Below, piece after piece: positions 2,554 to 47,173 of a DNA stretch of 64,000 bases; within the stretch, counting starts at the first letter, position 1; each line of letters opens with the position of its first letter. The DNA comes from Sphyrna mokarran (taxonomy: Eukaryota). The translations under genes were made by a program, and so were the position numbers. The notes under the pieces are model-generated. The model saw only the letters and a program-made list of their open reading frames with translations, searched no databases and had not been told where the DNA came from. Location of the stretch: positions 39,556,001 to 39,620,000 of the forward strand of contig JAGIQG010000011.1 of the NCBI GenBank assembly GCA_024679065.1, written 5' to 3'.

Positions 2554-4322
2554 GTATGGAAATATTCCCAGTATATTTTTCAAATGTCTTAGTAAAAGAA
2601 GAAAGCATAGGATTTTGCTGGATTTGCTACTTGATTCTAAGTGTGGAATTTAATGTTATGCCCTAGTAGCCAGGATACTTGTAATCAAGCAAGATGGTGG
2701 CGAGTGGGATGCCACTGCTTTCCCATCTATGCCCCAATTACATCCAGGATAGGAAGTGTCATGGATGACTTTCCCTTCCTGCTACCAATTGAGGCCTTTA
2801 AGTGGGCAATGAGTGCCCACTGAATTGCTGATTTGAGGACCGGGCTTCGGGAAGCGTGGAAGGTTTGCAGAGATTCACTTCCCTCCTTTTGCTGCTGACC
2901 CATACCCACATCCTATGCCCCCCGCTTCATCATCACCCACCTGTGGCAGTCCCTCAGTGATTAAGGCCTTGATTAATTGTACTGCTGGAAATTGCCACCA
3001 CTCGTGTGGGTGCTGCTGAGCAGTAGAGCCTTTGGCTGCTGGCTCTGGTGGGCAATTTCTATCCAGGGGTCCTTGTTCCAGCACAGGCCCACAGCTGCCC
3101 TGTTGATTATCTGATTGGCATTTAATTCAGCTGGCCTTCCCAAAAAGAGTCATGTAGAGCTCTTAGCAGCAAGACTCCATAACATCCATTAACTATACTC
3201 CGTTCATGTATATTTTCAATTACACATGAAACTTCTGGATATTTTAAGGTTATTTCTCAATGAGCCTAAATGATTTTAGCTTCATCTCTTCATATAATGT
3301 TCTTTATGTATCACAAACTGCTTTCATATATTGCATATTATAGTTTTGTTAATCCATTAAATAGAGGGGCACATTGCATTCTAAACACTAGCTGGAATCT
3401 TGTGGAGGCAATTGGGAACCTGGTTACCAGCTGGAAAACATGGCAGGAGCCAATCATCACCTCTTTTAGGGAAAGCATCTTGCTCCACACAGACACTCAA
3501 CAATGCCAGCAGCGGTTTTACCTTAGGATCAAGTTCTCCAGGAGCAAAAATTAACCCAGCAATAGCTGCCAGCTAATCAGAGACCAGAACAGTGATGTGA
3601 CATTGATAGTGGTGGCTGCTGCCAATGTAACACCCACCTGGACAGGCCAACAATGCGTGATAGTGGGAGGGGTGGTACTGGGGAAGGTTTTGAGCAAGAA
3701 AGGTGGGGGGGTTTCTCAGTGAGCATCCCCATTCCCCCTGAGTGTTGGCTCCCTTGACCTGACTCTCAGTACTTTTGAATGAGACACTCCCATCGTAAGA
3801 GACTGCAAGTATGGCAAGCCCCCTTCCCACTGCATACTGGTAATTTAAAATAGCAGTGGTGAGATAAGACCCTTAATTGGGCATTAATTGAGCCACAAAT
3901 CGGCATTTCCACCATGGATTCATTTCTGGTGGAGGTGGGAAGATGGCAGAGTCTCCACCGATGTTCTTTTATCTGATTAACAGTCATATTCACAGTGCTA
4001 TTGGAGGTAAATATATGAAGAGTTACAACTAAAATCATTTAGACTAGTTGAGAAATAGCCTTAAAATGTCCAGAAAGTTATATATAATTGACCTATCCTG
4101 TAGCTGCTTTGCCAATTAAGTAGATTGCTTAAGGCAATAATAAGTCTTTGTACAGTAAAATCATAATGCAAAGTGAGAACTTATTGTGTGAATGGAGTAC
4201 GATTGTATACTGTGCAATGCATTAGGTGGATCTTTTGTGTCTAAAGCTAAATGCATTTCTGTGTTAAAATGTTCCATGTGCGAGTCTTTGATTTTTTTTG
4301 TCCAAACTTGAATTTCTTAAAG

Positions 4323-4397
4323 TGCCAGAGGTTCCTGGGGTTCTTCCTGAAGAAGCAAAACCATCTTTGCGAAAAGAGAAGGTTGCTCCAAAAGAAG
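4323..4397 (+). CDS. ttn: PEVK exon, array copy 1, 75 nt: VPEVPGVLPEEAKPSLRKEKVAPKE
   Basis: cttaaag|tgcc ... gaag|gtacaa. Confidence 0.88.
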
Positions 4398-6040
4398 GTA
4401 CAAAGAAAGCCACATGTTGTATATTAGCACATTATCTTTTTGATAAGTCATGCATCCATCTTGTCATTACCACACTAAATATTTCTCTTCTGGAGGCTTC
4501 AAACTATTGGTGCTTTGCTACGTGTTAACCTTATTTTATGATATCTGTCATTTCAATTGTTTGCTGATGCATTTGTGCCATTCCATTGCTGTACTGTGCT
4601 ATTTCCCTGCTAGAACTAGAAATAATTTTGATTAATGTCCTTATTATTAGCTAAGCATTCAAATGCAGAGGCTGAGAAATTTAGCTCCTCAGTGCTTGCT
4701 TTTCCATGCTGTACGAGAACCAATGTTTCTCCAAAATGGCTTGTTTACACTTCTGGTGTGAGCCATGTTGTCACTTTTTGTTGAGAGTATTAGAGCTCAT
4801 GCAGGGAGCATCTGTGAGACATTTGTAGACATCAGTCACCATGTAACGTTGACTTGATACAAGTGCTGTCAATATAGAGCTGAACACTCCAATCAGCAGT
4901 CTCTCTTAACTCTCACTGCTAAGCCATTTGGCATTTAGCAATGGTACATGGTTAAGGGATTAGCAACTACTTTTAAATTAGTCAATTCATTTCAACTACT
5001 ATACTACATTTGTCGAAATGTTTAGTGGGTTTCCATTGACTATCATTCCATTAATGTATGTTTTCAATTACACATGAATCTTCTGGATATTTTAAGGTTA
5101 TTTCTCAATGAACCTAAATGATTTTAGCTGTATCTTTTCAAATAGGATTCTTCATGATTCCCAAACTGCTTTCATATATTGCATATTATGGTTTTGTTTA
5201 TCCATTAAATAGAGGAGCACATTGCATTCGAAACACTGGCCAGAATCTTCTGGAGGCAATTGGGACCCTGGTTACCAACTGGAAAACATGGCAGGAGCCA
5301 ATCATCACCTCTTTTAGGGAAAGCATCTTGCTCCACACAGACACTCAACAATGCCAGCAGCCGTTTTACCTTAGGATCAAGTTCTCCAGGAGCAAAAATT
5401 AACCCAGCAATAGCTGCCAGCCAATCAGAGATGAGAACAATGATGGTAACATTGGTAATGGTGGCTGCTGCCAATGTAACACCCATCCGAAGACTGGACA
5501 GGCCAACAATGTGTGATAGTGGGAGGGGTGGTACTGGGTAAGGTGTTGAGCAGCAAGGAATGTGGCGGGGGGAGGTTTTCAGTGGGCACCTTCATCCTCC
5601 CTGAGTGCTGATTCCCTCGATCTGACTCTCAGGACTTTTGAACGAGACACGCCCATTACAAGAGACCACAAGTATGGCAAGCCCCCTTCCCGCTGCATGC
5701 TAATAATTTAAAATAGCAGTGGTGGGATAAGATCTTTAAGTGGGTATTAATTGGGTCACACACTGGCCTTTCCACCATGGACTTATTTCTGGTGGAGGTG
5801 GGAAGATGGCAGGGTCTCCACCCGACACCCTTTTATCTGATTAACAATCATATTCACAGTGCTATTGGAGGTAAGTACATGAAGAGTTACAACTAAAATC
5901 ATTTAGACTAGTTGAGAAATAGCCTTAAAATATCCAAAAGTTCATGTATAATTGACCTGTCTTGTAGCTGCTTTACTAATTAAGTAGATTGCTTAAGGCA
6001 ATAATAAATTTTTGTATCGTAGAATTATAATACAAAGTGT

Positions 6041-6400
6041 GAATGGAGTACGATTGTACACTGTGCAATGCGTTAGGTGGATCTTTCGTATTTAAAGCTA
6101 AATGCATTTCTGTGTTAAAATGTTCCATGTGCAAGTCTTTGATTTTTTTTGTCCAAAATTGAATGAAGTACACTTGTACACTGTGCAATGCTTTAGGTGG
6201 ATCTTTTCTATTTAAAGCTAAATGCGTTTCTGTGTTAAAATGTTCCATGTGCAAGTCTTTGATTTTTTTTGTCCAAAATTGAATGGAGTAGGATTGTATG
6301 CTGTGCAATGCATTAGGTGGATCTTTTGTGTTTAACGCTAAATGCATTTTTGTGTTAAAATGTTTCATTTGCAAGTCTTTGACTTTTTTTGTCCAAAATT
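6041..6400 (+). repeat. 120-bp tandem repeat x3 just upstream of the acceptor (also x3 at 8115-8474; x2 at 10190-10429, 13980-14219, 15935-16174; x1 in copies 1, 5, 8)
   Basis: gaatggagtacgattgta...tttgtccaaaatt recurs at exactly 120-bp spacing. Confidence 0.95.
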
Positions 6401-6413
6401 GAATTTCTTAAAG

Positions 6414-6488
6414 TGCCAGAGATTCCTGGGGTTCTTCCTGAAGAAGCAAAACCATCTTTGCGAAAAGAGAAGGTTGCTCCAAAAGAAG
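6414..6488 (+). CDS. ttn: PEVK exon, array copy 2: VPEIPGVLPEEAKPSLRKEKVAPKE
   Basis: Same splice sites as copy 1; 75 nt. Confidence 0.88.
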
Positions 6489-8487
6489 GTACAAAGAAAG
6501 CCACATGTTGTATATTAGCACATTATCTTTTTGATAAGTCATGCACTCATCTTGTCATTACCACGCTAAATATTTCTCTTCTGGAGGCTTCAAACTGCTG
6601 GTGCTTTGCTATTTGTTAATCTTATTTTACGATATCTGTCATTTCAATTGTTTGCTGATGCATTTGTGCCATTCCATTGCTGTACTGTGCTATTTCCCTA
6701 GAAATAATTGTCCTTATTATTAGCTAAGCATTCAAATGCAGAGGCTGAGAAATTTAGCTCCTCAGTGCTTGCTTTTCCATGCTGTACGAGAACCAATGTT
6801 TCTCCAAAATGGCTTACTTACACTTCTGGTGTGAGCCATGTTGTCACTTTTTGTTGAGAGTATTAGAGCTCATGCAGGGAGCATCTGTGAGACATTTGTA
6901 GACATCAGTCAGCATGTAACATTGACTTGATACAAGTGCTGCCAATATAGAGCTGAACACTCCAATCAGCAGTCTCTCTTAAGCTCACATTGCGGAGCCG
7001 TTTCTGGTTAGCAATGGTACATGGTTAAGGGATCAGCAACTACTTTTAAGTTAGTTGATTGATTTCTACTGGCTGTACTACATTTGTTGAAAAGTTTAAT
7101 GGCTTTCCTTTAACCCTCATTCCATCAATATACGTTTTCAATTACACATGAACCTTCTGGATATTTTAAGGTTATTTCTCAACGAGCCTAAATGATTTTA
7201 GCTGCATCTCTTCATATAGTGTTCTTCATATATCCCAAACTGCTTTCATATATTGCATCTTATGGTTTTGTTTATCCATTAAATAGAGGGGCACATTGCA
7301 TTCGAAACACTAGCTGGAAACTTGTGGAGGTAATTGGGACCCTGGTTACCAACTGGAAAACATGGCAGGAGCCAATCATCACCTCTTTTAGAAAAAGCAT
7401 CTTGCTCCACACAGACACTCAACAATGCCAGCAGCCGTTTTACCTTAGGACCAAGCTCTCCAGGAGCAAAAATTAACCCAGCAATAGCTGCCAGCCAATC
7501 AGAGATGAGAACAATGATGGTAACATTGGTAATGGTGGCTGCTGCCAATGTAACACCCATCCGAAGACTGGACAGGCCAACAATGTGTGATAGTGGGAGG
7601 GATGGTACTGGGGAAGGTGTTGAGCAGCAAGGAACGTGGCGGGGGGAGGTTTTCAGTGTGCACCTTCAGCCTCCCTGAGTGCTGATTCCCTCGATCTGAC
7701 TCTCAGGACTTTTGAACGAGACACGCCCATTACAAGAGTCCACAAGTATGGCAAGCCCCCTCCCCGCTGCATGCTAATAATTTAAAATAGCAGTGGTGGG
7801 ATAAGATCTTTAAGTGGGTATTAATTGGGTCACACACTGGCCTTTCCACCATGGACTTATTTCTGGTGGAGGTGGGAAGATGGCAGGGTCTCCACCCGAC
7901 ACCCTTTTATCTGATTAACAATCATATTCACAGTGCTATTGGAGGTAAATACATGAAGAGTTATGACTAAAATCATTTAGACTAGTTGAGGAATAGCCTT
8001 AAAATATCCAAAAGTTCATATATAATTGACCTGTCTTGTAGCTGCTTTACTAATTAAGTAGATTGCTTAAGGCAATAATAAATTTTTGTATAGTAGAATT
8101 ATAATACAAAGTGTGAATGGAGTACGATTGTACACTGTGCAATGCATTTGGTGGATGTTTTGTATTTAAAGCTAAATGCATTTCTGTGTTAAAATGTTGC
8201 CTGTGCCAGTCTTTGATTTTTTTTGTCCAAAATTGAATGAAGTACACTTGTACACTGTGCAATGCTTTAGGTGGATCTTTTCTATTTAAAGCTAAATGCG
8301 TTTCTGTGTTAAAATGTTCCATGTGCAAGTCTTTGATTTTTTTTGTCCAAAATTGAATGGAGTACGATTGTATGCTGTGCAATGCATTAGGTGGATCTTT
8401 TGTGTTTAACGCTAAATGCATTTCTGTGTTAAAATGTTTCATTTGCAAGTCTTTGACTATTTTTGTCCAAAATTGAATTTCTTAAAG

Positions 8488-8562
8488 TGCCAGAGATTCC
8501 TGGGGTTCTTCCTGAAGAAGCAAAACCATCTTTGCGAAAAGAGAAGGTTGCTCCAAAAGGAG
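8488..8562 (+). CDS. ttn: PEVK exon, array copy 3 (ends ...VAPKG)
   Basis: Same splice sites; GAA>GGA in the last full codon. Confidence 0.88.
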
Positions 8563-10442
8563 GTACAAAGAAAGCCACATGTTGTATATTAGCACATTAT
8601 CTTTTTGATAAGTCATGCATTCATCTTGTCATTACCACGCTAAATATTTCTCTTCTGGAGGCTTCAAACTGCTGGTGCTTTGCTATTTGTTAATCTTATT
8701 TTACGATATCTATCATTTCAATTGTTTGCTGATGCATTTGTGCCATTCCATTGCTGTACTGTGCTATTTCCCTAGAAATAATTGTCCTTATTATTAGCTA
8801 AGCATTCAAATGCAGGGGCTGAGAAATTTAGCTCCTCAGTGCTTGCTTTTCCATGCTGTACGAGAACCAATGTTTCTCCAAAATGGCTTACTTACAATTC
8901 TGGTGTGAGCCATGTTGTCACTTTTTGTTGAGAGTATTAGAGCTCATGCAGGGAGCATCTGTGAGACATTTGTAGACATCAGTCAGCATGTAACATTGAC
9001 TTGATACAAGTGCTGCCAATATAGAGCTGAACACTCCAATCAGCAGTCTCTCTTAAGCTCACATTGCGGAGCCATTTCTGGTTAGCAATGGTACATGGTT
9101 AAGGGATCAGCAACTACTTTTAAGTTAGTTGATTGATTTCTACTGGCTGTACTACATTTGTCGAAAAATTTAGGGGCTTTCTTTTAACCCTCATTCCATC
9201 AATATACGTTTTCAATTACACATGAACCTTCTGGATATTTTAAGGTTATTTCTCAACGAGCCTAAATGATTTTAGCTGCATCTCTTCATATAGTGTTCTT
9301 CATATATCCCAAACTGCTTTCATATATTGCATCTTATGGTTTTGCTTATCCATTAAATAGAGGGGCACATTGCATTCGAAACACTAGCTGGAATCTTGTG
9401 GAGGTAATTGGGACCCTGGTTACCAACTGGAAAACATGGCAGGAGCCAATCATCACCTCTTTTAGGGAAAGCATCTTGCTCCACACAGACACTCAACAAT
9501 GCCAGCAGCCGTTTTACCTTAGGATCAAGTTCTCCAGGAGCAAAAATTAACCCAGCAATAGCTGCCAGCCAATCAGAGATGAGAACAATGATGGTAACAT
9601 TGGTAATGGTGGCTGCTGCCAATGTAACACCCATCCGAAGACTGGACAGGCCAACAATGTGTGATAGTGGGAGGGGTGGTACTGGGGAAGGTGTTGAGCA
9701 GCAAGGAACGTGGCGGTGGGGGGGGTTTTAGTGGCCACCTTCATCCTCCCTGAGTGCTGATTCCCTCGATCTGACTCTCAGGACTTTTGAACGAGACACG
9801 CCCATTACAAGAGACCACAAGTATGGCAAGCCCCCTTCCCGCTGCATGCTAATAATTTAAAATAGCAGTGGTGGGATAAGATCTTTAAGTGGATATTAAT
9901 TGGGTCACACACTGGCCTTTCCACCATGGACTTATTTCTGGTGGAGGTGGGAAGATGGCAGGGTCGCCACCCGACACCCTTTTATCTGATTAACAATCAT
10001 ATTCACAGTGTTATTGGAGGTAAATACATGAAGAGTTACAACTAAAATCATTTAGACTAGTTGAGAAATAGCCTTAAAATATCCAAACGTTCATGTATAA
10101 TTGACCTGTCTTGTAGCTGCTTTACTAATTAAATAGATTGCTTAAGGCAATAATAAATTTTTGTATAGTAGAATCATAATACAAAGTGTGAATGGAGTAC
10201 GATTGTACACTGTGCAATGCATTAGGTGGATCTTTTGTATTTAAAGCTAAATGCATTTCTGTGTTAAAATGTTCCATGTGCAAGTCTTTGATTTTTTTTG
10301 TCCAAAATTGAATGGAGTACGATTGTATGCTGTGCAATGCATTAGGTGGATCTTTTGTGTTTAACGCTAAATGCATTTTTGTGTTAAAATGTTTCATTTG
10401 CAAGTCTTTGACTTTTTTTGTCCAAAATTGAATTTCTTAAAG

Positions 10443-10517
10443 TGCCAGAGATTCCTGGGGTTCTTCCTGAAGAAGCAAAACCATCTTTGCGAAAAGAGAA
10501 GGTTGCTCCAAAAGAAG
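10443..10517 (+). CDS. ttn: PEVK exon, array copy 4
   Basis: Same splice sites; 75 nt. Confidence 0.88.
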
Positions 10518-12277
10518 GTACAAAGAAAGCCACATGTTGTATATTAGCACATTATCTTTTTGATAAGTCATGCATTCATCTTGTCATTACCACGCTAAAT
10601 ATTTCTCTTCTGGAGGCTTCAAACTGCTGGTGCTTTGCTATTTGTTAATCTTATTTTACGATATCTGTCATTTCAATTGTTTGCTGATGCATTTGTGCCA
10701 TTCCATTGCTGTACTGTGCTATTTCCCTAGAAATAATTGTCCTTATTATTAGCTAAGCATTCAAATGCAGAGGCTGAGAAATTTAGCTCCTCAGTGCTTG
10801 CTTTTCCATGCTGTACGAGAACCAATGTTTCTCCAAAATGGCTTACTTACAATTCTGGTGTGAGCCATGTTGTCACTTTTTGTTGAGAGTATTAGAGCTC
10901 ATGCAGGGAGCATCTGTGAGACATTTGTAGACATCAGTCAGCATGTAACATTGACTTGATACAAGTGCTGCCAATATAGAGCTGAACACTCCAATCAGCA
11001 GTCTCTCTTAAGCTCACATTGCGGAGCCATTTCTGGTTAGCAATGGTACATGGTTAAGGGATCAGCAACTACTTTTAAGTTAGTTGATTGATTTCTACTG
11101 GCTGTACTACATTTGTCGAAAAATTTAGGGGCTTTCTTTTAACCCTCATTCCATCAATATACGTTTTCAATTACACATGAACCTTCTGGATATTTTAAGG
11201 TTATTTCTCAACGAGCCTAAATGATTTTAGCTGCATCTCTTCATATAGTGTTCTTCATATATCCCAAACTGCTTTCATATATTGCATCTTATGGTTTTGC
11301 TTATCCATTAAATAGAGGGGCACATTGCATTCGAAACACTAGCTGGAATCTTGTGGAGGTAATTGGGACCCTGGTTACCAACTGGAAAACATGGCAGGAG
11401 CCAATCATCACCTCTTTTAGGGAAAGCATCTTGCTCCACACAGACACTCAACAATGCCAGCAGCCGTTTTACCTTAGGATCAAGTTCTCCAGGAGCAAAA
11501 ATTAACCCAGCAATAGCTGCCAGCCAATCAGAGATGAGAACAATGATGGTAACATTGGTAATGGTGGCTGCTGCCAATGTAACACCCATCCGAAGACTGG
11601 ACAGGCCAACAATGTGTGATAGTGGGAGGGGTGGTACTGGGGAAGGTGTTGAGCAGCAAGGAACGTGGCGGTGGGGGGGGTTTTAGTGGCCACCTTCATC
11701 CTCCCTGAGTGCTGATTCCCTCGATCTGACTCTCAGGACTTTTGAACGAGACACGCCCATTACAAGAGACCACAAGTATGGCAAGCCCCCTTCCCGCTGC
11801 ATGCTAATAATTTAAAATAGCAGTGGTGGGATAAGATCTTTAAGTGGGTATTAATTGGGTCACACACTGGCCTTTCCACCATGGACTTATTTCTGGTGGA
11901 GGTGGGAAGATGGCAGGGTCTCCACCCGACACCCTTTTATCTGATTAACAATCATATTCACAGTGTTATTGGAGGTAAATAGATGAAGAGTTACAACTAA
12001 AATCATTTAGACTAGTTGAGAAATAGCCTTAAAATATCCAAAAGTTCATGTATAATTGACCTGTCTTGTAGCTGCTTTACTAATTAAGTAGATTGCTTAA
12101 GGCAATAATAAATTTTTGTATCGTAGAATCATAATACAAAGTGTGAATGGAGTACGATTGTACACTGTGCAATGCATTAGGTGGATCTTTTGTATTTAAA
12201 GCTAAATGCATTTCTGTGTTAAAATGTTCCATGTGCAACTCTTTGATTTTTTTTGTCCAAAATTGAATTTCTTAAAG

Positions 12278-12352
12278 TGCCAGAGATTCCTGGGGTTCTT
12301 CCTGAAGAAGCAAAACCATCTTTGCGAAAAGAGAAGGTTGCTCCAAAAGAAG
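12278..12352 (+). CDS. ttn: PEVK exon, array copy 5
   Basis: Same splice sites; 75 nt. Confidence 0.88.
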
Positions 12353-14232
12353 GTACAAAGAAAGCCACATGTTATATATTAGCGCATTATCTTTTTGATA
12401 AGTCATGCATTCATCTTGTCATTACCACGCTAAATATTTCTCTTCTGCAGGCTTCAAACTGCTGGTGCTTTGCTATTTGTTAATCTTATTTTACGATATC
12501 TGTCATTTCAATTGTTTGCTGATGCATTTGTGCCATTCCATTGCTGTACTGTGCTATTTCCCTAGAAATAATTGTCCTTATTATTAGCTAAGCATTCAAA
12601 TGCAGAGGCTGAGAAATTTAGCTCCTCAGTGCTTGCTTTTCCATGCTGTACGAGAACCAATGTTTCTCCAAAATGGCTTACTTACAATTCTGGTGTGAGC
12701 CATGTTGTCACTTTTTGTTGAGAGTATTAGAGCTCATGCAGGGAGCATCTGTGAGACATTTGTAGACATCAGTCAGCATGTAACATTGACTTGATACAAG
12801 TGCTGCCAATATAGAGCTGAACACTCCAATCAGCAGTCTCTCTTAAGCTCACATTGCGGAGCCATTTCTGGTTAGCAATGGTACATGGTTAAGGGATCAG
12901 CAACTACTTTTAAGTTAGTTGATTGATTTCTACTGGCTGTACTACATTTGTCGAAAAATTTAGGGGCTTTCTTTTAACCCTCATTCCATCAATATACGTT
13001 TTCAATTACACATGAACCTTCTGGATATTTTAAGGTTATTTCTCAACGAGCCTAAATGATTTTAGCTGCATCTCTTCATATAGTGTTCTTCATATATCCC
13101 AAACTGCTTTCATATATTGCATCTTATGGTTTTGCTTATCCATTAAATAGAGGGGCACATTGCATTCGAAACACTAGCTGGAATCTTGTGGAGGTAATTG
13201 GGACCCTGGTTACCAACTGGAAAACATGGCAGGAGCCAATCATCACCTCTTTTAGGGAAAGCATCTTGCTCCACACAGACACTCAACAATGCCAGCAGCC
13301 GTTTTACCTTAGGATCAAGTTCTCCAGGAGCAAAAATTAACCCAGCAATAGCTGCCAGCCAATCAGAGATGAGAACAATGATGGTAACATTGGTAATGGT
13401 GGCTGCTGCCAATGTAACACCCATCCGAAGACTGGACAGGCCAACAATGTGTGATAGTGGGAGGGGTGGTACTGGGGAAGGTGTTGAGCAGCAAGGAACG
13501 TGGCGGTGGGGGGGGTTTTAGTGGCCACCTTCATCCTCCCTGAGTGCTGATTCCCTCGATCTGACTCTCAGGACTTTTGAACGAGACACGCCCATTACAA
13601 GAGACCACAAGTATGGCAAGCCCCCTTCCCGCTGCATGCTAATAATTTAAAATAGCAGTGGTGGGATAAGATCTTTAAGTGGGTATTAATTGGGTCACAC
13701 ACTGGCCTTTCCACCATGGACTTATTTCTGGTGGAGGTGGGAAGATGGCAGGGTCTCCACCCGACACCCTTTTATCTGATTAACAATCATATTCACAGTG
13801 TTATTGGAGGTAAATACATGAAGAGTTACAACTAAAATCATTTAGACTAGTTGAGAAATAGCCTTAAAATATCCAAAAGTTCATGTATAATTGACCTGTC
13901 TTGTAGCTGCTTTACTAATTAAGTAGATTGCTTAAGGCAATAATAAATTTTTGTATCGTAGAATCATAATACAAAGTGTGAATGGAGTACGATTGTACAC
14001 TGTGCAATGCATTAGGTGGATCTTTTGTATTTAAAGCTAAATGCATTTCTGTGTTAAAATGTTCCATGTGCAAGTCTTTGATTTTTTTTGTCCAAAATTG
14101 AATGGAGTACGATTGTATGCTGTGCAATGCATTAGGTGGATCTTTTGTGTTTAACGCTAAATGCATTTTTGTGTTAAAATGTTTCATTTGCAAGTCTTTG
14201 ACTTTTTTTGTCCAAAATTGAATTTCTTAAAG

Positions 14233-14307
14233 TGCCAGAGATTCCTGGGGTTCTTCCTGAAGAAGCAAAACCATCTTTGCGAAAAGAGAAGGTTGCTCCA
14301 AAAGAAG
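14233..14307 (+). CDS. ttn: PEVK exon, array copy 6
   Basis: Same splice sites; 75 nt. Confidence 0.88.
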
Positions 14308-16187
14308 GTACAAAGAAAGCCACATGTTGTATATTAGCGCATTATCTTTTTGATAAGTCATGCATTCATCTTGTCATTACCACGCTAAATATTTCTCTTC
14401 TGCAGGCTTCAAACTGCTGGTGCTTTGCTATTTGTTAATCTTATTTTACGATATCTGTCATTTCAATTGTTTGCTGATGCATTTGTGCCATTCCATTGCT
14501 GTACTGTGCTATTTCCCTAGAAATAATTGTCCTTATTATTAGCTAAGCATTCAAATGCAGAGGCTGAGAAATTTAGCTCCTCAGTGCTTGCTTTTCCATG
14601 CTGTACGAGAACCAATGTTTCTCCAAAATGGCTTACTTACAATTCTGGTGTGAGCCATGTTGTCACTTTTTGTTGAGAGTATTAGAGCTCATGCAGGGAG
14701 CATCTGTGAGACATTTGTAGACATCAGTCAGCATGTAACATTGACTTGATACAAGTGCTGCCAATATAGAGCTGAACACTCCAATCAGCAGTCTCTCTTA
14801 AGCTCACATTGCGGAGCCATTTCTGGTTAGCAATGGTACATGGTTAAGGGATCAGCAACTACTTTTAAGTTAGTTGATTGATTTCTACTGGCTGTACTAC
14901 ATTTGTCGAAAAGTTTAGTGGCTTTCCTTTAACCCTCATTCCATCAATATACGTTTTCAATTACACATGAACCTTCTGGATATTTTAAGGTTATTTCTCA
15001 ACGAGCCTAAATGATTTTAGCTGCATCTCTTCATATAGTGTTCTTCATATATCCCAAACTGCTTTCATATATTGCATCTTATGGTTTTGCTTATCCATTA
15101 AATAGAGGGGCACATTGCATTCGAAACACTAGCTGGAATCTTGTGGAGGTAATTGGGACCCTGGTTACCAACTGGAAAACATGGCAGGAGCCAATCATCA
15201 CCTCTTTTAGGGAAAGCATCTTGCTCCACACAGACACTCAACAATGCCAGCAGCCGTTTTACCTTAGGATCAAGTTCTCCAGGAGCAAAAATTAACCCAG
15301 CAATAGCTGCCAGCCAATCAGAGATGAGAACAATGATGGTAACATTGGTAATGGTGGCTGCTGCCAATGTAACACCCATCCGAAGACTGGACAGGCCAAC
15401 AATGTGTGATAGTGGGAGGGGTGGTACTGGGGAAGGTGTTGAGCAGCAAGGAACGTGGCGGTGGGGGGGGTTTTAGTGGGCACCTTCATCCTCCCTGAGT
15501 GCTGATTCCCTCGATCTAACTCTCAGGACTTTTGAACGAGACACGCCCATTACAAGAGACCACAAGTATGGCAAGCCCCCTTCCCGCTGCATGCTAATAA
15601 TTTAAAATAGCAGTGGTGGGATAAGATCTTTAAGTGGGTATTAATTGGGTCACACACTGGCCTTTCCACCATGGACTTATTTCTGGTGGAGGTGGGAAGA
15701 TGGCAGGGTCTCCACCCGACACCCTTTTATCTGATTAACAATCATATTCACAGTGCTATTGGAGGTAAATACATGAAGAGTTACAACTAAAATCATTTAG
15801 ACTAGTTGAGAAATAGCCTTAAAATATCCAAAAGTTCATGTATAATTGACCTGTCTTGTAGCTGCTTTACTAATTAAGTAGATTGCTTAAGGCAATAATA
15901 AATTTTTGTATCGTAGAATCATAATACAAAGTGTGAATGGAGTACGATTGTACACTGTGCAATGCATTAGGTGGATCTTTTGTATTTAAAGCTAAATGCA
16001 TTTCCGTGTTAAAATGTTCCATGTGCAAGTCTTTGATTTTTTTTGTCCAAAATTGAATGGAGTACGATTGTATGCTGTGCAATGCATTAGATGGATCTTT
16101 TGTGTTTAACGCTAAATGCATTTCTGTGTTAAAATGTTTCATTTGCAAGTCTTTGACTTTTTTTGTCCAAAATTGAATTTCTTAAAG

Positions 16188-16262
16188 TGCCAGAGATTCC
16201 TGGGGTTCTTCCTGAAGTAGCAAAACCATCTTTGCGAAAAGAGAAGGTTGCTCCAAAAGAAG
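16188..16262 (+). CDS. ttn: PEVK exon, array copy 7 (PEVAKP variant)
   Basis: Same splice sites; GAA>GTA substitution. Confidence 0.88.
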
Positions 16263-17522
16263 GTACAAAGAAAGCCACATGTATATTAGCGCATTATCTT
16301 TTTGATAAGTCGTGCATTCATCTTGTCATTACCACGCTAAATATTTCTCTTCTGCAGGCTTCAAACTGCTGGTGCTTTGCTATTTGTTAATCTTATTTTA
16401 CGATATCTGTCATTTCAATTGTTTGCTGATGCATTTGTGCCATTCCATTGCTGTACTGTGCTATTTCCCTAGAAATAATTGTCCTTATTATTAGCTAAGA
16501 TTCAAATGCAGAGGCTGAGAAATTTAGCTCCTCAGTGCTTGCTTTTCCATGCTGTACGAGAACCAATGTTTCTCCAAAATGGCTTACTTACAATTCTGGT
16601 GTGAGCCATGTTGTCACTTTTTGTTGAGAGTATTAGAGCTCATGCAGGGAGCATCTGTGAGACATTTGTAGACATCAGTCAGCATGTAACATTGACTTGA
16701 TACAAGTGCTGCCAATATAGAGCTGAACACTCCAATCAGCAGTCTCTCTTAAGCTCACATTGCGGAGCCGTTTCTGGTTAGCAATGGTACATGGTTAAGG
16801 GATCAGCAACTACTTTTAAGTTAGTTGATTGATTTCTACTGGCTGTACTACATTTGTCGAAAAGTTTAATGGCTTTCCTTTAACCCTCATTCCATCAATA
16901 TACGTTTTCAATTACACATGAACCTTCTGGATATTTTAAGGTTATTTCTCAACGAGCCTAAATGATTTTAGCTGCATCTCTTCATATAGTGTTCTTCATA
17001 TATCCCAAACTGCTTTCATATATTGCATCTTATGGTTTTGTTTATCCATTAAATAGAGGGGCACATTGCATTTGAAACACTAGCTGGAATCTTGTGGAGG
17101 CAATTGAGTACCTGGTTACCAACTGGAAAACATGGCACGAGCCAATCATCACCTCTTTTAGAGAAAGCACCTTGCTCCATACAGACACTCAACAATGCCA
17201 GCAGCAGTTTTACCTTAGGATCAAGTTCTCCAGGAGCAAAAATTAACCCAGCAATAGCTGCCAGCCAATCAGAGACCAGAACAGTGATGGTGACATTGGT
17301 AATGGTGGCTGCTGCCAATGTAACACCCACCTGGACAAGCCAACAATGTGTGATAGTGGGAGGGGTGGTACTGGGGAAGGTGTTGAGCAGCAAGGAAGAT
17401 GGGGGGCGCGGGAGGGGAATGGTGTGTGGAAGGGGGGGTTCTCAGTGGGCAACCCCATCCCCCCTGAGTGCTGGGTCCCTCGATCTGACTCTCAGGACTT
17501 TTGAACGAGACACGCCCATTAC

Positions 17523-18385
17523 TTGGACAAGTTGGACAAGTTGGACTTGGACAAGTTGCAGAGCTGGGCCGAGAGGTGGCAAATGGAGTTTAATGTGGAA
17601 AAGTGTGAGGTAATGCACTATGGCAGAAATAATAAATGTGTAGAGTATAGGGCAAATGGTAGGATTCTTAGTAGTCTAGATGAACAGAGGGATCTTGGTG
17701 TGTATGTGCATTGATCCCTGAAAGTAGGCAGTCAGGTCGAGAAGGTTGTTAGGAAGGCATATGGAGTCTTGGCTTTTATTGGTAGAGGGATTGAATTTCG
17801 GAGCCGCAACGTCATGTTGCAACTGTACAAAACTCTAGTGCGGCCGCACTTGGAGTATTGTGTGCAGTTCTGGTCCCCACATTATAAGAAAGATGTGGAG
17901 GCATTGGAGAGGGTACAGAGGAGGTTTACCAGGATGTTGCCTGGTATGGAGGGCAGGTCTTATGAGGAGAGGCTGAGGGATTTGAGGTTGTTTTCGTTAG
18001 AAAGGAGGCGGCTAAGAGGGGACCTTATCGAAACATATAAGATGATTAGAGGTTTAGATAGGGTGGACAGTGATAGCCTTTTTCCTAGGATGGAGAAAGC
18101 TAGCACGAGGGGACACAGCTTTAAATTAAGGGGTGATAGTTATAGGACGGATATCAGAGGTAGGTTCTTTACCCAAAGGGTGGTTCGGGAGTGGAATGCC
18201 CTGCCTGCAGCAGTTGTAGATGCGCCAAGTTTGGTGGCGTTTAAGAGGTTAGTTGATAAGTATATGGAAGAGAAGGGAATGGTTTAGTTTGGAGGGGCAT
18301 TGCTTTTTATATTGGTCGGCGCAACATCGAAGGCCGAAGGGCCTGTTCTGTGCTGTAATGTTCTATGTTCTATGCTCTGTGTTCT
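17523..18385 (+). mobile_element. 5'-truncated CR1-clade LINE (RT C-terminus plus 3' UTR), young
   Basis: WQMEFNVEKC...LYKTLVRPHLEYCVQFWSP...LERRRLRGDLIE CR1 ORF2 motifs; (TTCTATG)n tail; ATTAC target-site duplication at 17518-17522 and 18386-18390; absent from the other array copies. Confidence 0.95.
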
Positions 18386-18914
18386 ATTACAAGAGACCAC
18401 AAGTATGACAAGCCCCCTTCCCACTGCATGCTAATAATTTAAAATAGCAGTGGTGGGATAAGATCTTTAAGTGGGTATTAATTGGGCCACACATCGGCCT
18501 TTCCACCATGGACTTATTTCTGGTGGAGGTGGGAAGATGGCAGGGTCTCCACCCAACATCCTTTTATCTGATTAACAATCAAATTCACAGTCCTATTGGA
18601 GGTAAATATTTGAAGAGTTACAACTAAAATCATTTAGACTAGTTGACAAATAACCTGAAAAAGGTTTAGGAGATTCATTGTAAGGGACCTGTCTTGTAGC
18701 TGCTTTACTAATTAAGTAGATTGCTTACGGCAATAATAAGTTTTTGTAGAATCACAAAACCAAGTAAGAAGTTATTGTGTGAATGGGGTACGATTGTACA
18801 CTGAGCAATGCATTAGGTGGATCTTTTGTGTTTAAAGCTAAATATATTTCTGTGTTAAAATGTTCCATGTGCAAGTCTTTGATTTTTTTTTGTCCAAAAT
18901 TGAATTTCTTAAAG

Positions 18915-18989
18915 TGCCAGAGGTTCCTGGGGTTCTTCCTGAAAAAGCAAAACCAGCTTTGCGAAAAGAGAAGGTTGCTCCAAAAGAAG
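18915..18989 (+). CDS. ttn: PEVK exon, array copy 8: VPEVPGVLPEKAKPALRKEKVAPKE
   Basis: cttaaag|tgcc ... gaag|gtacaa. Confidence 0.88.
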
Positions 18990-20369
18990 GTACAAAGGAA
19001 GCCACATGTTGTATATTAGCATTGTCTTTTGATAAGTCATGCATCCATCTTGTCATTACCACGCTAAATATTTCTCTATTGGAGGCTTCAAACTGCTGGT
19101 GCTCAGCTACTTGTTAGTCTTATTTCACAATATCTGTCGTTTCAATTGTTTGCTGATGCATTTGTGCCATTTCATTGCTGTACTGTGCTATTTCTCTGTT
19201 TGAAGTAGAAAAATTTTGATTAATGTCCTTATTAGTGGCTAAGCATTCAGATGCAGAGGCTGAGAAATTTAGCTCCTTAATCTTGCTTTTCCATGCTTTA
19301 TGAGAACCAATTTTCTCCAAAATGGCTTGCTTACACTTCTGGTGCGAACCATGTTGTCACATTTTATTGAGGGTATTAGAGCTCATGCAGGGAGCATCTG
19401 TGAGACTTTTGTAGACATCAGTCAGCATATAACATTGACTTGATGCAAGTGCTGCCAATATAGAGCTGAACACTCCAATCAGCAGTCTCTCTTAAGCTCA
19501 CTCTGGTGATCCATTTGCCATTTAACAATGGTACATTGTTAAGGGATCAGCAACTACTTTTAAGTTAGTTGATTGATTTCTACTGGCTGTACTACATTTG
19601 TCAAAACGTTTAGTGGGTTTCCAGAATTGAAGGACTTGGTCCTGACTTGAAGGATTCTTCACAAATATTTAATCAGAGGTATGGGTCCAGCATCTTCTTG
19701 AACTGTGAAATGACTGGGCGAATAAACTGAGGATTTCTACGCAGAACAGGTTGCTGGAAGCAAGAGTCAAAGAGGGAAGAAGAACTCTCAATGGAAGCAT
19801 GCGGACCAGTATGTTAGACACATCCAATGCATTATGCATATCCTCAGTGAAATCCACTGTCTATTGCAGCCACAAGTGCAACATCGGAACAGGATGATGA
19901 TGGCACTGACAATGTCCATGAAAGTGACTGTGGCCAGGAATCTTCTGCTTCTGATTTTGTTGTGTCAGCATCATGAACTAATGTTCATATTCCACCAGTG
20001 TGTATATGTATAATGTTAGCTGAACTAGTCATGAGTTGTTGAAATGGTAGGCCTGATAATGGAAATGTTTACATGGAAATAATCTAAAGGTAGGCCTTGA
20101 AGATTTCAAATGATGGGGCTGTGACATTTTGTCATCGTGACATAGTAGGGCATGGCTATATTTTCTGGCAGATCTGCCAATGCACCAAGAACTTCATTGT
20201 GCATAACTACGAACCTTCTTCTGAATGTCCCACCAAAATCTTTATCTGAGTGATCTGCAGCAGAACGTTTGTGAAACCTCACCATCTGACAAATTAGCAC
20301 CAATGCTCCCCAGGTCCCCTGACCTGGCTATAGCCCACTTGTGCCTGGTGACTCACCATGTGAAAATCT

Positions 20370-21520
20370 TTTCTTTATTTATTTCTGGAATGTGGGCATT
20401 GCTGGATAGGCCAACATATGTTGCCCATTCCTAATTGCCCTTCAGAACGTCGTGGTGAGCTACCTTATTAAATCACTGCATTCCACATGGTGTGGACTGT
20501 TATCACTGGTAGGAAGAGAGTTCCAGGATTTTGTCCTAACAGTAGAGAAGGAATTGCAATATATTTCCAAGTCAGGATGGTGAGTGATTTTGGAGGAGAA
20601 CTTACAAGTGGTGGTGTTCATATGCATTTACTTCTCTCATGGCGATAGTTATGGATTTGGGAGGTGTGGTCTGAGGAGACTTGGTGAGTTCCTGCAGTTC
20701 ATCTTGTGGATGGAATACATTATTGCCACTGTGCGTTGGTGGTGAAAGGTGTGAATGTTTGTGGATGGATTGACAATTAAGGGAGCTACTTTATCCTGAA
20801 TGGTGCAGAGCTTCTTGAATATTGCTGGAGCTGCACTCGTTCAGGTGAGTGGAGAGTATTCCGTCACATCCCTAACTTGTACCTCGTAGATGATGAACAG
20901 GCATTGAGGAATCAGGAGATGAGTTACTTTCTATAGGAATCCTAGCCTCTGAGCTGCTCTTTAGCGTCAGTATGTCTGTAGCTAGTCCAGTTCAGTTTCT
21001 GGTCAATGATAACTCCCAGGATGTCGATAGTGGAGAACTCAGTGACGGTAATATCATTGAATATCAAAGGGTGATGGTTAGATTCTCTCTTGTTGGGGAT
21101 GGTCTTTACCTTGCAAATGTTATGGAGCAAATGTTACTTGCCATTTGTCAGCCCAAGCCTGGATATTGTCAACATCTTGCTGAATTTGGACATCAACAGC
21201 TTCTATATCTGAGGTGCGAAACATTGTGCAGTCATTGCTGGAATATTGTCAGGGCCCATAACCTTTGCAGTGCTGTCAGCTGTTTTTTGATATTCTGTTG
21301 AGTGAATCAAATTGGCTGAAGACTAGTTGATGCTGAGATGGGTCATCCACTCAGCACTTCTGGTGAATATTGTCATGAATGCTTCAGCTTTATCTTTTGT
21401 ACTGATGCTGGGCTCCCCCATCATTGAGGATGGAAATGCTCTACAAGCTTTTCTGCTCTAGTGTGCTCTTTAATTGTCCACCACTATTCACAATTGGATG
21501 TGGCAGGACTGCAGAGCTTG
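20370..21520 (-). mobile_element. Degraded LINE (CR1/L2 group) 3' fragment
   Basis: Minus-strand ORF with IDILGVIIDQKLNW (RT C-terminal motif); homologous to the element at 43590-46090; boundaries approximate. Confidence 0.7.
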
Positions 21521-25051: not shown

Positions 25052-25356
25052 AATCATAAGAATTTCTGCAGCATAGAAGGAGGCCTTTGGCCCATCGAGC
25101 CTGCATCAACAACAATCCCACCCAGGTCCTATCCCCATAACCCCACATTTTTATCCCCCTAATCCCTCTGATACTATGGGGTAATTTACCATGACCAATC
25201 AAAGTAACCCGCACATCTTTGGACACCCAAAGGAAACATATGCAGACACGGGATAAATGTGCAAACTCCACACAGATTGCGACCCAAGGCTGGAATTGAG
25301 CCCAGGCCCCTGGCACTGTGAGACAGAAGTGCTAGCCATTGTATCATCATGCCGCC
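25052..25356 (-). mobile_element. V-SINE (HE1-like) with CR1-derived tail
   Basis: tRNA head with B box, V-domain tgtgtggagtttgcacat on minus strand; tail similar to the CR1 3' UTR at ~18315-18385. Confidence 0.8.
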
Positions 25357-27259: not shown

Positions 27260-27523
27260 TTTAAAGTTTATTTATTAGTCACAAGTAAGGCTTACGTTAA
27301 CATTGCAATGAAGTTACTGTGAAATTCCCCTAGTCAGCAGGCTCCAGCACCAGTTTGGGTCAATGCTCCTAACCAGCACATCTTTCAGATTGTCGGAGGA
27401 AATCCAAGTAGATACAGGGAGAACATGCAAATTCCACACAGATGGTAACCCAAGTTGGGAATCGAACCTGGTTCCCTGGCGCTGTGAGACAGTAGTGCTA
27501 ACCACTGTGCCACCTTGCTGCCC
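27260..27523 (-). mobile_element. V-domain tRNA SINE with a different A-rich tail
   Basis: A box tggcacagtgg, B box ggttcgattcc and V-domain on minus strand; flanked by ~52-bp direct repeats. Confidence 0.8.
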
Positions 27524-29543: not shown

Positions 29544-30918
29544 GGGTGGAATTCTTCCATGTTGAGACTAGGTGCTTTGGAGGGTTGCTGTAGCGCACCT
29601 GTCCTGCCAACCAGAATGGTGAGATCCTGCCTCAGATTCAGTGCTTGGAATCTCATTAATTGTATACAAATGCGTCCCCCTCAATTTTCCTGGACATCCA
29701 GCAGCTAATTCTTCCATTCGTCCTCTGCTGATGAGTTCAAAAGTCCTGGTGCTAAATTTAAACACCAGTCCTGTTCACTTGTATCACTCTCTCCAGTCCA
29801 CTTGCCTTCGTTGTGCAGGATGTTAGCAACCCAGAGGGAAAAGGCCAGCAGCTTCAAGAAGAAGTATTTTCTTTGATTCAGCCACTCCCCCTCTGCCCCC
29901 GAGCCCATCACCTGTGAGGCGTCTATGTCCCTCGTTGATCTCAACCACCATCTCTGGAGTCTTTATCCATCCCCTTCCAGTAAGTGATGTGGTATTCCTT
30001 TGATCCCCTTATTGTGAACTTTCCATGCACCCTTGTTGGAATCCAGTTTTATTATCCTCGGTCTTCCTTCTGTGTTTGGCTTCATCATTCATCTTCCAGC
30101 AGCATGGTGATGTCCATGAATTCCAGCTCAGCTTCGAGATGGAGGGCAGAGTGGTGTACAGTGCATCAGGAGCAGTGCAATACAGGAGCAAAATGTTGCA
30201 CTGACCCCGAAGTGTCTGGACAACTGAGGACCATCTTATGCACGTCACTAATTAGCAATTGGGTTTGACATCAATGTAAGTTCCCACTGGTATGATGGAA
30301 GCTGGCAAGGCCCGATGGGATGCTGTGGGGGTGGTGGGTTTGCTTTTTGGATGAGAGTTCATGAGATGCAAATGAATGCAAATGGCATTTGTGCCATTTA
30401 CCAGCTGGTAGTGCAACCCACTATTAAACTCTCCTCCCCATCCCCCACCCTCATCTTCCTATCCCACTGGGAGAATTGCAACATGATTTTCTACAAAAGG
30501 TCACGAATGTGGCCCAATCCATCACGCATACCAGCCTCCCTTCCATTGACTGCATCTATACTTCCCACTGCCTCAGCAAAGCAGCCAGCATAATTAAGGA
30601 CCCCACACATCCCACACCTTCTCTCTTCCACCTTGTTCCTTCAGGAAAATGATACAAAAGTCTGAGGTCATGTACCAACTGACTCAAGAACATCTTCCTC
30701 CTTGCTGCTGTCAGACTTTTGATTGGATTTATCTTGCATTAAGTTGATCTTTCCCTATGCCGTAGCTATGACTGTAACAATACATTCTACACTCTTTCAT
30801 TTCCTTCTCTATGAACAGTATGTTTTGTCTGTATAGCGCAAGAGTTTTTGTCTTCCACTAGATTCACTGCAACTGCCCACCACCAAACCCTCTGGAGCCA
30901 GTTGGAAGAATTCTGCCC
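29544..30918. mobile_element. Non-autonomous TIR DNA element (possibly Harbinger-derived) with a nested LINE fragment
   Basis: Imperfect TIRs gggtggaattcttcca / tggaagaattctgccc; GC-richer interior; no clear target-site duplication. Confidence 0.5.
30490..30845 (+). mobile_element. Rex1/Babar-like LINE 3' fragment
   Basis: Translates to AQSITHTSLPSID.IYTS.CL.KAASIIKDPTHP...LF.L.PSG, recalled as the typical Rex1/Babar ORF end. Confidence 0.7.
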
Positions 30919-35733: not shown

Positions 35734-36198
35734 TGCCAGAAGTCACCAAGAAGCCCAAAGTGGCCAAGGAGCCCGAAGTGGCCAGGAAGCCCGAAGTCGC
35801 CAGGAAGCCTGAAGTGGCCAAGGAGCCTGAAGTGGCCAGGAAGCCTGAAGTGGCCAGGAAGCCTGAAGTGGCCAAGGAGCCTGAAGTGGCCAAGGAGCCA
35901 GAAGTGGCCAAGAAGCCAGAAGTGGCCAAGAAGCCTGAAGTGGCCAGGAAGCCTGAAGTGGCCAGGAAGCCTGAAGTGGCCAGGAAGCCTGAAGTGGCCA
36001 AGGAGCCAGAAGTGGCCAAGGAGCCAGAAGTGGCCAAGAAGCCAGAAGTGGCCAAGAAGCCAGAAGTGGCCAAGAAGCCAGAAGTGGCCAAGAAGCCAGA
36101 AGTCACCAAGAAGCCAGAAGTCGCCAAGAAGCCAGGAATACCAGAAGAGATTAAGCCAGTTGCTGTTTCAAGGGAAAAGGATGTCATCTCAACAAAAG
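35734..36198 (+). CDS. ttn: Expanded PEVK exon, 465 nt: V + 22 x PEVA(K/R)(K/E) + PGIPEEIKPVAVSREKDVISTK
   Basis: cattaaag|tgcc ... aaag|gtacaa; matches ORF 35721..36215. Confidence 0.9.
35736..36131 (+). repeat. Coding minisatellite, 22 x 18 bp (CCWGAAGTGGCCARGRAG)
   Basis: Directly visible tandem repeat with no indels. Confidence 0.97.
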
Positions 36199-36859: not shown

Positions 36860-37115
36860 ATGTCACAAGTGGGCTTACATTAACATTGCAGTGAAGTTAC
36901 TTGAAAATCCCCTAGTTGCCACACTCTAGTGCCTGTTCGGGAGTATTTAGCATGGCCAATCCATCTAACCATCACGTCCTTCAGATTGTGGAAGGAAACC
37001 AGAGCACCCAGAAGAAATCCACACAGACACGTGGAGAACATGCAGACTGTATCTGGGAATCGAGTATGGGTGCCCGTGCAGCAGCAGTGCTAACCACTGT
37101 GTCACTGTACTGCCC
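36860..37115 (-). mobile_element. V-domain SINE, degraded
   Basis: Homologous to 27260-27523 (gtcacaagt..gcttac.ttaacattgca.tgaagttact; gtgctaaccactgtg). Confidence 0.75.
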
Positions 37116-46247: not shown

Positions 46248-46319
46248 TACCAGAGGTTCCTAAGAAGCCAGTTCCTGAACCATTGAAACCAAAGAAAGAG
46301 GCGGTTGCTCCAGAAAAAG
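46248..46319 (+). CDS. ttn: PEVK exon, 72 nt, PEPLKP family 1: VPEVPKKPVPEPLKPKKEAVAPEK
   Basis: cctaaag| ... aaag|gtattc. Confidence 0.9.
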
Positions 46320-46444
46320 GTATTCCTCCTTGGGATTTGAAATTCTTTTATGACGCATATGTCGTGAACTGGTATTTTCCGGGCCTGGTGGGTGGGTGCA
46401 GCTGCAACGATGCAGTAAGCCAGCCAAATGTTCACTGACTTTGA

Positions 46445-46812
46445 AGAGAGGGATAGAGATGTTTTACTGCAATTATATAGGGCATTAGTGAGCCACATCT
46501 GGAATACTGTGTGCAGTTTTATCTGAGGAAGGATGCCCTTGCTATAGAGGAAGTACAATGAAGGTTTACCAGGCTGATTCCCGGGATGGCAGTCTGATAT
46601 ATGATGAGAGACTAAGTCCGTTAGGATTATAGTCACTGTAATTTAGAAGAGTGAGAGGGGTTCTCATAGAAATTTATACATTTCTAACAAGGTTAGACAG
46701 GGTAGATTCAGAAAAAAATGTTCCCAATGTGAGTGAGTCCAGAACTAGGGGTCATAATTTGAGGAGAAGGGATAACCTTTTAGAACTGAGGTGAGGAATG
46801 TATGGAATTCAC
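46445..46812 (+). mobile_element. Degraded CR1 fragment
   Basis: LLQLYRALV..HLEYCVQF-type sequence, homologous to 17810-18200. Confidence 0.8.
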
Positions 46813-47101
46813 TATCACAGCTCTCCCAATTTTGGCACAAGTCCCTTGGTATTACCAAGGAACAATTTGCAATACTAACTTGGCTCGATATGTCTTTGCC
46901 ATTATTGTTTCATTGCTGGGCAGTCAGTCTTGTTTGATTTTAACCAGTTTCTCCCCCAGTATTGTACATGCAAATAGATAATGTAATTTTGAGTTATATT
47001 TCTCTGTCAAGTATGATTGTGTTATTTTAACCTGTTGCTTAAATATCTCAATGATAAAAAAAATTGCATGCGAAGCAACTTAACATTATTGTTTCTTAAA
47101 G

Positions 47102-47173
47102 TGCCAGAAGTTCCTAAGAAGCCAGTTCCTGAACCATTGAAACCTAAGAAGGAGGCGGTTACTCCAGAAAAAG
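47102..47173 (+). CDS. ttn: PEVK exon, 72 nt, PEPLKP family 2: ...KKEAVTPEK
   Basis: cttaaag| ... aaag|gtagat. Confidence 0.9.

Follow-up and report, generated by a model that had tools for sequence, protein, structure and literature searches.

The 64-kb stretch of DNA analyzed here (hereafter the window) raises the question of how one short exon came to stand in eight tandem copies, each with its intron, and what this means for the encoded protein. We propose that the locus is probably a PEVK tandem exon array of titin that was built stepwise.

Hand curation of the window yielded 39 phase 1-1 exons (1283 codons in total, mostly 63-108 nt each) with PEVK fractions of 0.37-0.90. Such a run of short symmetric exons with abundant P, E, V and K is the pattern by which a PEVK region is recognized, in support of the titin-type PEVK exons named in an earlier reading of the letters alone (the sequence-only reading). 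The PPAK model (PF02818) matched 6 of 34 scanned exons, all below threshold (E = 4.3e-4 to 0.081; best score 20.9 bits, curated cut-off 21 bits), and none of the three array exon copies scanned. A large exon of 462 nt at 63495-63956 is glutamate-rich (net charge -36), and we take such interspersed exons to be a mark of the titin PEVK region. Among window frames of 110 aa or more, no Ig-like frame was recognized. A protein search with the glutamate-rich exon gave no hit among 1612 candidates (proteins up to 2000 residues), and a further search gave three low-identity hits, none a named titin; the array exon with its intron flanks matched none of 6 (proteins up to 2000 residues). One window exon contains an internal 18-nt repeat; compared with the Atlas, it returned no usable hit. 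The supplement of PMC12241362 mentions PEVK twice, both times for primers, and two short exon peptides were unmatched there. The putative titin identity rests on the 39 symmetric PEVK-rich exons together with the sub-threshold PPAK matches; the animal is probably a cartilaginous fish, a shark or a ray.

Self-BLAST of the window, a self-comparison of the kind that the sequence-only reading had suggested, recovered the tandem array through seven offsets from unit 1.

3185..19623, forward strand: whole eight-unit tandem array, with TCCA microhomology at both ends
3185, 5032, 7106, 9180, 11135, 12970, 14925 and 16876: unit starts of the array

Homology begins with TCCA at 3185-3188 and ends with TCCA at 19620-19623, which places precisely the limits given earlier as about 3185 and 19620, and the four bases are also retained at the first unit junction (5032). 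Given the local base composition, microhomology of at least four bases is expected by chance in about 2% of cases. The units, introns included, lie head to tail with one original junction, as in an intragenic tandem exon array. They are 1835 to 2744 nt long, a spread that reflects both a nested 120-bp repeat and, in unit 8, an 868-nt insertion.

An ungapped scan of the whole window for the 75-nt exon found exactly eight copies with 0-2 mismatches; the next-best site had 32. Together with the seven offsets, this bears out the eight-unit amplification described earlier.

4323..4397, forward strand: exon copy 1, 75 nt, phase 1-1, 25 codons, PEVK-rich
6414..6488, forward strand: exon copy 2, Val to Ile relative to copy 1, common to copies 2-7
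8488..8562, forward strand: exon copy 3, private Glu to Gly, 3 bases upstream of the donor
10443..10517, forward strand: exon copy 4, from the ungapped scan
12278..12352, forward strand: exon copy 5, from the ungapped scan
14233..14307, forward strand: exon copy 6, from the ungapped scan
16188..16262, forward strand: exon copy 7, private Glu to Val
18915..18989, forward strand: exon copy 8, Glu to Lys and Ser to Ala

All eight have an identical acceptor AG, a GT donor, phase 1-1 and an open frame, so that each unit does carry an intact exon, as had been claimed; the PEVK fraction is 0.62-0.71. With a matrix that was derived from 25 other exons of the window and also gives credit to the PEVK exon start, the array acceptors score 16.8-18.3; these scores fall inside the leave-one-out range of those 25 exons and exceed the 99th percentile for all AGs. 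Five exon sites vary, each changing an amino acid. Since no change is silent, purifying selection at the protein level is not demonstrated.

Divergence between the units falls into two tiers. U1 and U8 differ by 9.7% and outer from inner units by 7.0-8.7%, while the inner units differ among themselves by 0.5-3.1%.

5258..17100 (approximately), forward strand: young homogenized block of six periods, copies 0.56-2.24% apart

This block is shifted by some 225 nt relative to the unit register of the array, and in its first 230 columns U8 differs from U3-U7 at 3-4 sites and from U2 at 25. The near-identical introns of the inner copies reported earlier hold for about 5258 to 17100, and not for the outer units (7-9.7%). 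A single young eight-fold event, as previously suggested, is ruled out by the two tiers: three lineages 7-10% apart are older than the 1-to-6 expansion. As judged from these divergences, the locus is an old three-unit array whose middle unit was later expanded to six. The earlier estimate of about 175 additional residues stands if every copy is spliced in; only five extra copies (125 aa) are young, since the three lineages predate the expansion. Even the closest units (0.56%) exceed the nucleotide diversity of the epaulette shark (0.2%, PMC10587355), and the expansion may therefore be old and fixed. With the epaulette shark rate, 0.5% corresponds to 3.6 million generations and 9.7% to 69 million, figures that we do not trust as ages because this rate may not suit the host and gene conversion also intervenes.

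The middle lineage resembles a chimera of U8 and U1, as predicted by unequal crossing-over. Of the 50 informative sites left of alignment column 843, the inner consensus agrees with U8 at 41, and of the 94 to its right it agrees with U1 at 62 (maximum chi-square 30.0, permutation P = 0.0002); segment trees change topology in line with this switch. A simple chimera fits imperfectly, as the first 230 columns of U2 show 25 differences from U8 and 26 from U1, and the last ~100 columns of the inner units revert to a U8-like state. The tree has no outgroup, so shared states may be ancestral. The homogeneous interior, diverged ends and mosaic units observed here are what is expected of an array evolving by unequal crossing-over.

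Three further elements were found within the units.

3216..4091, unstranded: intronic segment with inverted arms of 80 nt at 3216-3296 and 4012-4091, ~83-89% complementary
6040..6404, forward strand: nested 120-bp tandem repeat, three copies, ending just upstream of the acceptor
17523..18385, forward strand: 5'-truncated non-LTR retrotransposon fragment, only in unit 8

The inverted-arm segment, which the sequence-only reading did not mention, lies upstream of the exon in every unit and could be a non-autonomous DNA transposon; no target-site duplication was seen by eye, and self-BLAST found no copy in the window outside the array. The 120-bp repeat is bounded by a 5-nt TGAAT microhomology and is present in 1, 3, 3, 2, 1, 2, 2 and 1 copies in units 1-8. 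The retrotransposon fragment, presumably CR1-type, has a 5-nt target-site duplication and an open frame of 190 codons (17715-18287). LINE-driven duplication was rejected, the insert being internal and confined to a single unit. Scanning the window against Rfam and for tRNAs returned nothing.

For the origin of the array, we propose the following order of events. A microhomology-mediated event at TCCA would have duplicated ~1.85 kb with one symmetric 75-nt exon; the junction is present in the sequence, and the repair pathway behind it is presumed, as is a trigger by the inverted repeat lying 30 nt inside the breakpoint. The microhomology-bounded origin suggested earlier agrees with the TCCA at both array ends and at the first junction. 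Unequal crossing-over between the two copies may then have produced a third, chimeric middle unit, a cause that we infer for the observed mosaic. Slippage of 120 bp in the middle lineage, and further unequal crossovers that took the middle unit from one to six and left the terminal units diverged, would have followed. The retrotransposon would have entered unit 8 last.

The exon is in phase 1-1 and a multiple of three in length, so that the frame is kept whatever the number of copies included. Copies being frame-neutral, the array would offer 0-200 extra residues of disordered spring through ordinary PEVK alternative splicing. A rival reading, which we consider less likely than not, is adaptive: skeletal muscle would splice the copies in series, and selection would have favored them for a more compliant spring. 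Frame and splice sites are retained in all eight copies, and conservation is higher in the exon than in the intron. Moreover, 175 extra residues would add ~16% to the remaining PEVK-type coding sequence of the window (175/1108), and this is large relative to the skeletal PEVK of 634-774 aa given for the elephant shark (PMC12241362). Across the three old lineages the exon shows 3 changes at 75 sites against 10.2 expected (Poisson P = 0.009), and the exon with its flanks 5 at 115 sites (P = 0.002). Changes in the introns show overdispersion (variance/mean 2.3), and among 75-site windows lying wholly within introns 3.4% are as conserved as the exon; gene conversion could be an alternative cause of the exon's low divergence. 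Against adaptive lengthening, however, the exon changes are all non-silent, no signal distinguishes selection for copy number from tolerance, and PMC6469411 itself leaves room for neutral processes in PEVK length change. Most likely, the expansion is tolerated length drift in which exon and splice signals were kept intact.

The inverted arms suggest another reading, which we consider unlikely. The duplicated intronic stem-loop would supply alternating complementary arms and make the array self-limiting, with transcripts carrying some copies or using them exclusively. A given exon would be looped out when the right arm before it pairs with the left arm that follows; with the same low probability, competing RNA duplexes rather than gene copy number would set the number of spring modules, one or several consecutive copies being looped out. 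With an inverted repeat in every unit, exons 1-7 each sit between complementary 80-nt arms, like the competing elements of a mutually exclusive cluster. The two arm pairings do not differ in stability (-76 to -85 kcal/mol, against -18 ± 3 for shuffled sequence), and exon 4 is looped out in the minimum-energy fold of 9200-12070, although the looped fold is better by just 12.6 of 873 kcal/mol. A closely related route was proposed by Ivanov and Pervouchine (PMC6071210), and inverted Alu pairs are enriched near skipped exons according to the abstract of 10.1101/2025.03.07.642063. As in the systems of PMC6071210 and the docking-selector system of Dscam, an exon is duplicated with its neighboring stem-loop, giving alternative pairings. 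In contrast to the PMC6071210 model, which requires one duplicated arm, and to Dscam, the array duplicates both arms, has no single docking site and leaves the arms unconserved (8 and 22 changes, ~11 expected). Mismatches between arms on the transcribed strand are mostly C-A (4-7 per pair, with 1-5 G-U), exceeding G-U in 14 of 15 pairings, which does not indicate conserved or compensated pairing, and the antisense duplex is more stable than the sense duplex in 14 of 15. The within-unit pair could also form first during transcription. Selection for RNA pairing of the arms was rejected on the C-A excess and the lack of arm conservation. Were the arms to control inclusion, the locus would be a recent example of duplication leading to competing structures in a vertebrate muscle gene, one in which tandem duplication had incidentally brought titin compliance under the control of RNA structure.

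An assembly artifact, in which reads or the two haplotypes were falsely duplicated to give some of the inner copies, is improbable. The closest unit pairs are 9 sites apart (0.56%), U6 has no private substitution, and a two-unit stretch self-aligns at 99.2%. No unit pair is identical, however, and five of the six inner units carry 4-17 private substitutions each. Derived markers are nested and shared among units, and the inner variation (37 transitions, 19 transversions and only three small indels) is unlike long-read error. Least probable is that the inner copies are mostly silent passengers whose 120-bp acceptor-region decoys yield frameshifted, degraded messages: every extra 120-bp copy repeats a T-rich tract and places an AG nine bases on, and splicing to the decoy in unit 4 would yield an exon of 200 nt that contains stops, but with the matrix that also credits the PEVK exon start the seven decoys score -4.1 to -11.3 against 18.3 for true acceptors, and strong decoy acceptors were rejected on these scores.

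Read as a stepwise PEVK array, the locus resembles the segmental duplication of human TTN (exons 172-180, 181-189 and 190-198, plus 203-204) in its tandem, in-frame and highly similar PEVK exons with introns. Copy-number variation of the human block is recurrent and probably benign (PMC9142044). That block comprises nine exons in three copies and is linked to LINE-1 (PMC6469411, PMC12241362), whereas the array repeats one exon eight times within 4-nt microhomology bounds. Unlike in the human LINE-mediated triplication, no recognized retroelement lies at the unit boundaries; a single retrotransposon fragment was found, a later arrival confined to unit 8. Mammalian PEVK-CA expansions (chimpanzee, orangutan, rat, mouse and star-nosed mole, with a triplication in koala) are likewise independent, lineage-specific gains of PEVK exons by tandem duplication; as covered in the sections of PMC6469411 consulted, they are confined to mammals and involve large blocks, with three as the highest block copy number. 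The connectin of cartilaginous fishes (PMC12241362), whose I-band has lengthened, is probably the same gene in the same clade, with independent lengthening by exon-block duplication and variable PEVK splicing; that work treats 6-Ig super-repeats, of which the elephant shark has six and the whale shark eight, and its consulted sections describe no PEVK exon array.

Duplication of PEVK exon blocks being already known, the array is a clear but ordinary case of titin length change. It offers well-resolved PEVK length evolution outside mammals, and it could serve as a small natural experiment on whether extra PEVK exons enter the transcript in series and alter muscle stiffness. Four stages lie within the 64 kb: an old six-copy family, the mid-age triplication, the young six-fold expansion and the 18-nt repeat inside an exon. 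The six-copy exon family, at 46248-55146, shows what we read as the same process at an older stage, its intron flanks having decayed to 69-74%.

Self-BLAST of the window returned seven offsets from the first unit, and a scan with the first exon located eight copies with 0-2 mismatches, the next best place having 32. This confirms the eight-unit tandem array proposed by the sequence-only reading. All eight exon copies are 75 nt long, phase 1-1 and open in frame, with an identical acceptor AG and a GT donor, as the same reading had described, and the homology limits were indeed found at a TCCA motif. At the first unit junction its four bases are intact, and a mutated version is common to the six later junctions; the chance probability of such boundary microhomology is about 2%.

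Features in the window (positions on the forward strand)
3185, TCCA, start of the array homology
19620, TCCA, end of the array homology
17523-18385, 3' fragment of a retrotransposon, in the last unit (U8) only; a frame of 190 codons is open, the 5' end carries a short tandem repeat and the tail is a simple repeat
35734-36198, 465-nt exon expanded by an 18-nt unit in ~22 copies, which encode six-residue repeats of PEVAKK type
46248-55146, older six-copy PEVK exon family, near-identical exons of 72, 72, 72, 72, 63 and 69 nt
63495-63956, large glutamate-rich exon, weakly periodic internally (near 100 nt)

Unit length ranges from 1835 to 2744 nt because a 120-bp repeat nested immediately upstream of the acceptor varies in copy number (1, 3, 3, 2, 1, 2, 2 and 1 copies across U1-U8) and U8 carries an 868-nt insertion. 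The single copy in U5 (12144-12263) is of the upstream type, with one difference from U4a and U6a; therefore, the second copy was probably lost by recombination.

After the extra 120-bp copies and the U8 insert were taken out, U1 and U8 were 9.7% divergent, the outer units differed from the inner ones (U2-U7) by 7.0-8.7%, and the inner units differed among themselves by 0.5-3.1%. The boundaries of the young block do not coincide with those of the units: in the first 230 columns U8 differs from U3-U7 at 3-4 sites, whereas U2 differs from every other unit at 25-27. We therefore place the homogenised block at ~5258-17100 (six periods, 0.56-2.24% between copies). The tiers indicate that three old lineages (U1, middle and U8) came first and that the middle lineage later expanded from one to six. 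Thus, the "young 8-copy tandem amplification" of the sequence-only reading stands for five of the seven extra copies but not as one event, the three lineages, 7-10% apart, being older; likewise, 125 of the ~175 residues of its "recent lengthening" are young and the remainder derives from older lineages.

Of the informative sites, those left of ~11953 (U5 coordinates) group the middle lineage with U8 in 41 of 50 cases, and those right of it group it with U1 in 62 of 94, in an analysis run without an outgroup (permutation p = 0.0002; segment trees concordant). Unequal crossover in a two-unit array would produce a mosaic middle lineage such as the one seen, with two flaws in the fit: the U2 left end lies no nearer to U8 than to U1, and the last ~100 columns of the middle lineage are U8-like again. 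Diverged terminal units are a mark of unequal crossing-over.

An assembly artefact, in which some inner copies are false duplications, would suit U6, which is without private substitutions, but is highly improbable, as no two units are identical, five of the six inner units carry private substitutions, and the inner differences comprise 37 transitions, 19 transversions and three small indels. Even the closest unit pair (0.56% different) exceeds the nucleotide diversity of 0.2% reported for the epaulette shark (PMC10587355), so the six-fold expansion need not be recent nor still variable. At the mutation rate given there, 7e-10 per generation, 0.5% divergence equals 3.6 million generations, a figure made unreliable by the borrowed species rate and gene conversion.

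The window contains 39 phase 1-1, PEVK-rich exons (1283 codons in total, hand-curated), the large glutamate-rich exon among them. PPAK motif matches were obtained in 6 of 34 scanned window exons (E 4e-4 to 0.08), all below the curated cut-off, and in none of the three array exon copies scanned. Protein searches with exon-derived queries returned no named titin, and no Ig exon was recognised within the window. Since the motif matches are sub-threshold and a named match is absent, it is from exon architecture that we strongly infer titin as the host gene. In the exons at 21621 and 29023 the acceptor AG is missing from where it would normally lie, and the one that follows, six bases further along, preserves the frame; these exons may be shifted or dying.

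In the older six-copy family, the upstream introns of the four 72-nt copies are 69-74% alike, with 1-5 of 16 silent sites and 0-3 of 53 replacement sites changed. Taken with the array, this family makes single-exon amplification recurrent in the window. The 465-nt exon is a candidate coding VNTR.

On the three old lineages the array exon shows 3 changes against 10.2 expected (P = 0.009), and exon plus flanks 5 changes in 115 sites (P = 0.002); however, 3.4% of windows within the introns are no more variable than the exon. All five variable exon sites are amino-acid-changing. As the array acceptors score comparably to those of other window exons, the copies look usable, any number preserving the frame. 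Were all of them included, the window's other PEVK-type coding would gain ~16%. PEVK length is an established determinant of passive compliance. In the accessible text, PMC6469411 also has compliance set by PEVK length, and PMC12241362 describes heart PEVK segments of 372-424 residues and skeletal-muscle segments of 634-774 in elephant shark, generated by alternative splicing. Most likely, the array reflects drift in length that is tolerated and read out through ordinary PEVK splicing.

Human TTN is reported to carry a nine-exon PEVK block three times, its copy-number variation being recurrent and probably benign (PMC9142044), and both consecutive use and skipping of human PEVK repeat exons are reported (PMC5874998). 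Large PEVK duplications are listed for chimpanzee, orangutan, rat, mouse and star-nosed mole, and a triplication for koala (PMC6469411). Unlike the human block and these mammalian duplications, as far as the available text describes them, the array is one exon present eight times and bounded by microhomology. We did not find it described in the accessible literature on shark titin PEVK or on PEVK exon duplication and concerted evolution, a scope outside which most subscription journals fell. PEVK exon duplication is a known kind of change, to which the eight-unit single-exon array adds a new member.

The U8 insert codes the end of a reverse-transcriptase-type protein and is presumably CR1. Among the 120 matches listed of 6402, skate, bamboo shark and devil ray supply its best named full-length relatives (60-62% identity), with bird and turtle relatives at ~44-56%. 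The host is likely a shark or ray. A 5-nt target-site duplication in U8 and the empty corresponding site in U7 place the insertion later than the duplication and rule it out as the driver. Elsewhere, a dispersed repeat occurs in two copies of opposite orientation, 67% alike (29545-30072 and 53783-54356), and further fragments are 68-72% alike (20677-20906 and 43684-43917; 25205-25356, 27278-27522 and 36862-36998), which we take to be LINE and SINE remnants.

Upstream of its exon, each unit also contains two inverted arms of 80 nt separated by ~720 nt, which the sequence-only reading lacked; since the amplification, exons 1-7 have each been flanked by the right arm of their own unit and the left arm of the following one. 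Either arm pairing has a predicted energy of -76 to -85 kcal/mol (shuffled sequences, -18 +/- 3), and in the best predicted fold of 9200-12070 exon 4 is looped out, by a margin of only 12.6 of 873 kcal/mol. The arrangement resembles a proposed route to competing structures (PMC6071210) and inverted-Alu loop-out skipping (10.1101/2025.03.07.642063), as outlined in the accessible parts of these sources. A selected RNA-pairing function is argued against by the arm mismatches, which favour non-transcribed-strand pairing in 14 of 15 pairings, and by 8 and 22 changes in the arms against ~11 expected. An influence of the arms on splicing as an unselected effect seems unlikely. At ~18640-18690, the right arm of U8 carries 13 changes of its own among 80 sites, bunched at one end; the other two lineages have 1 and 4.
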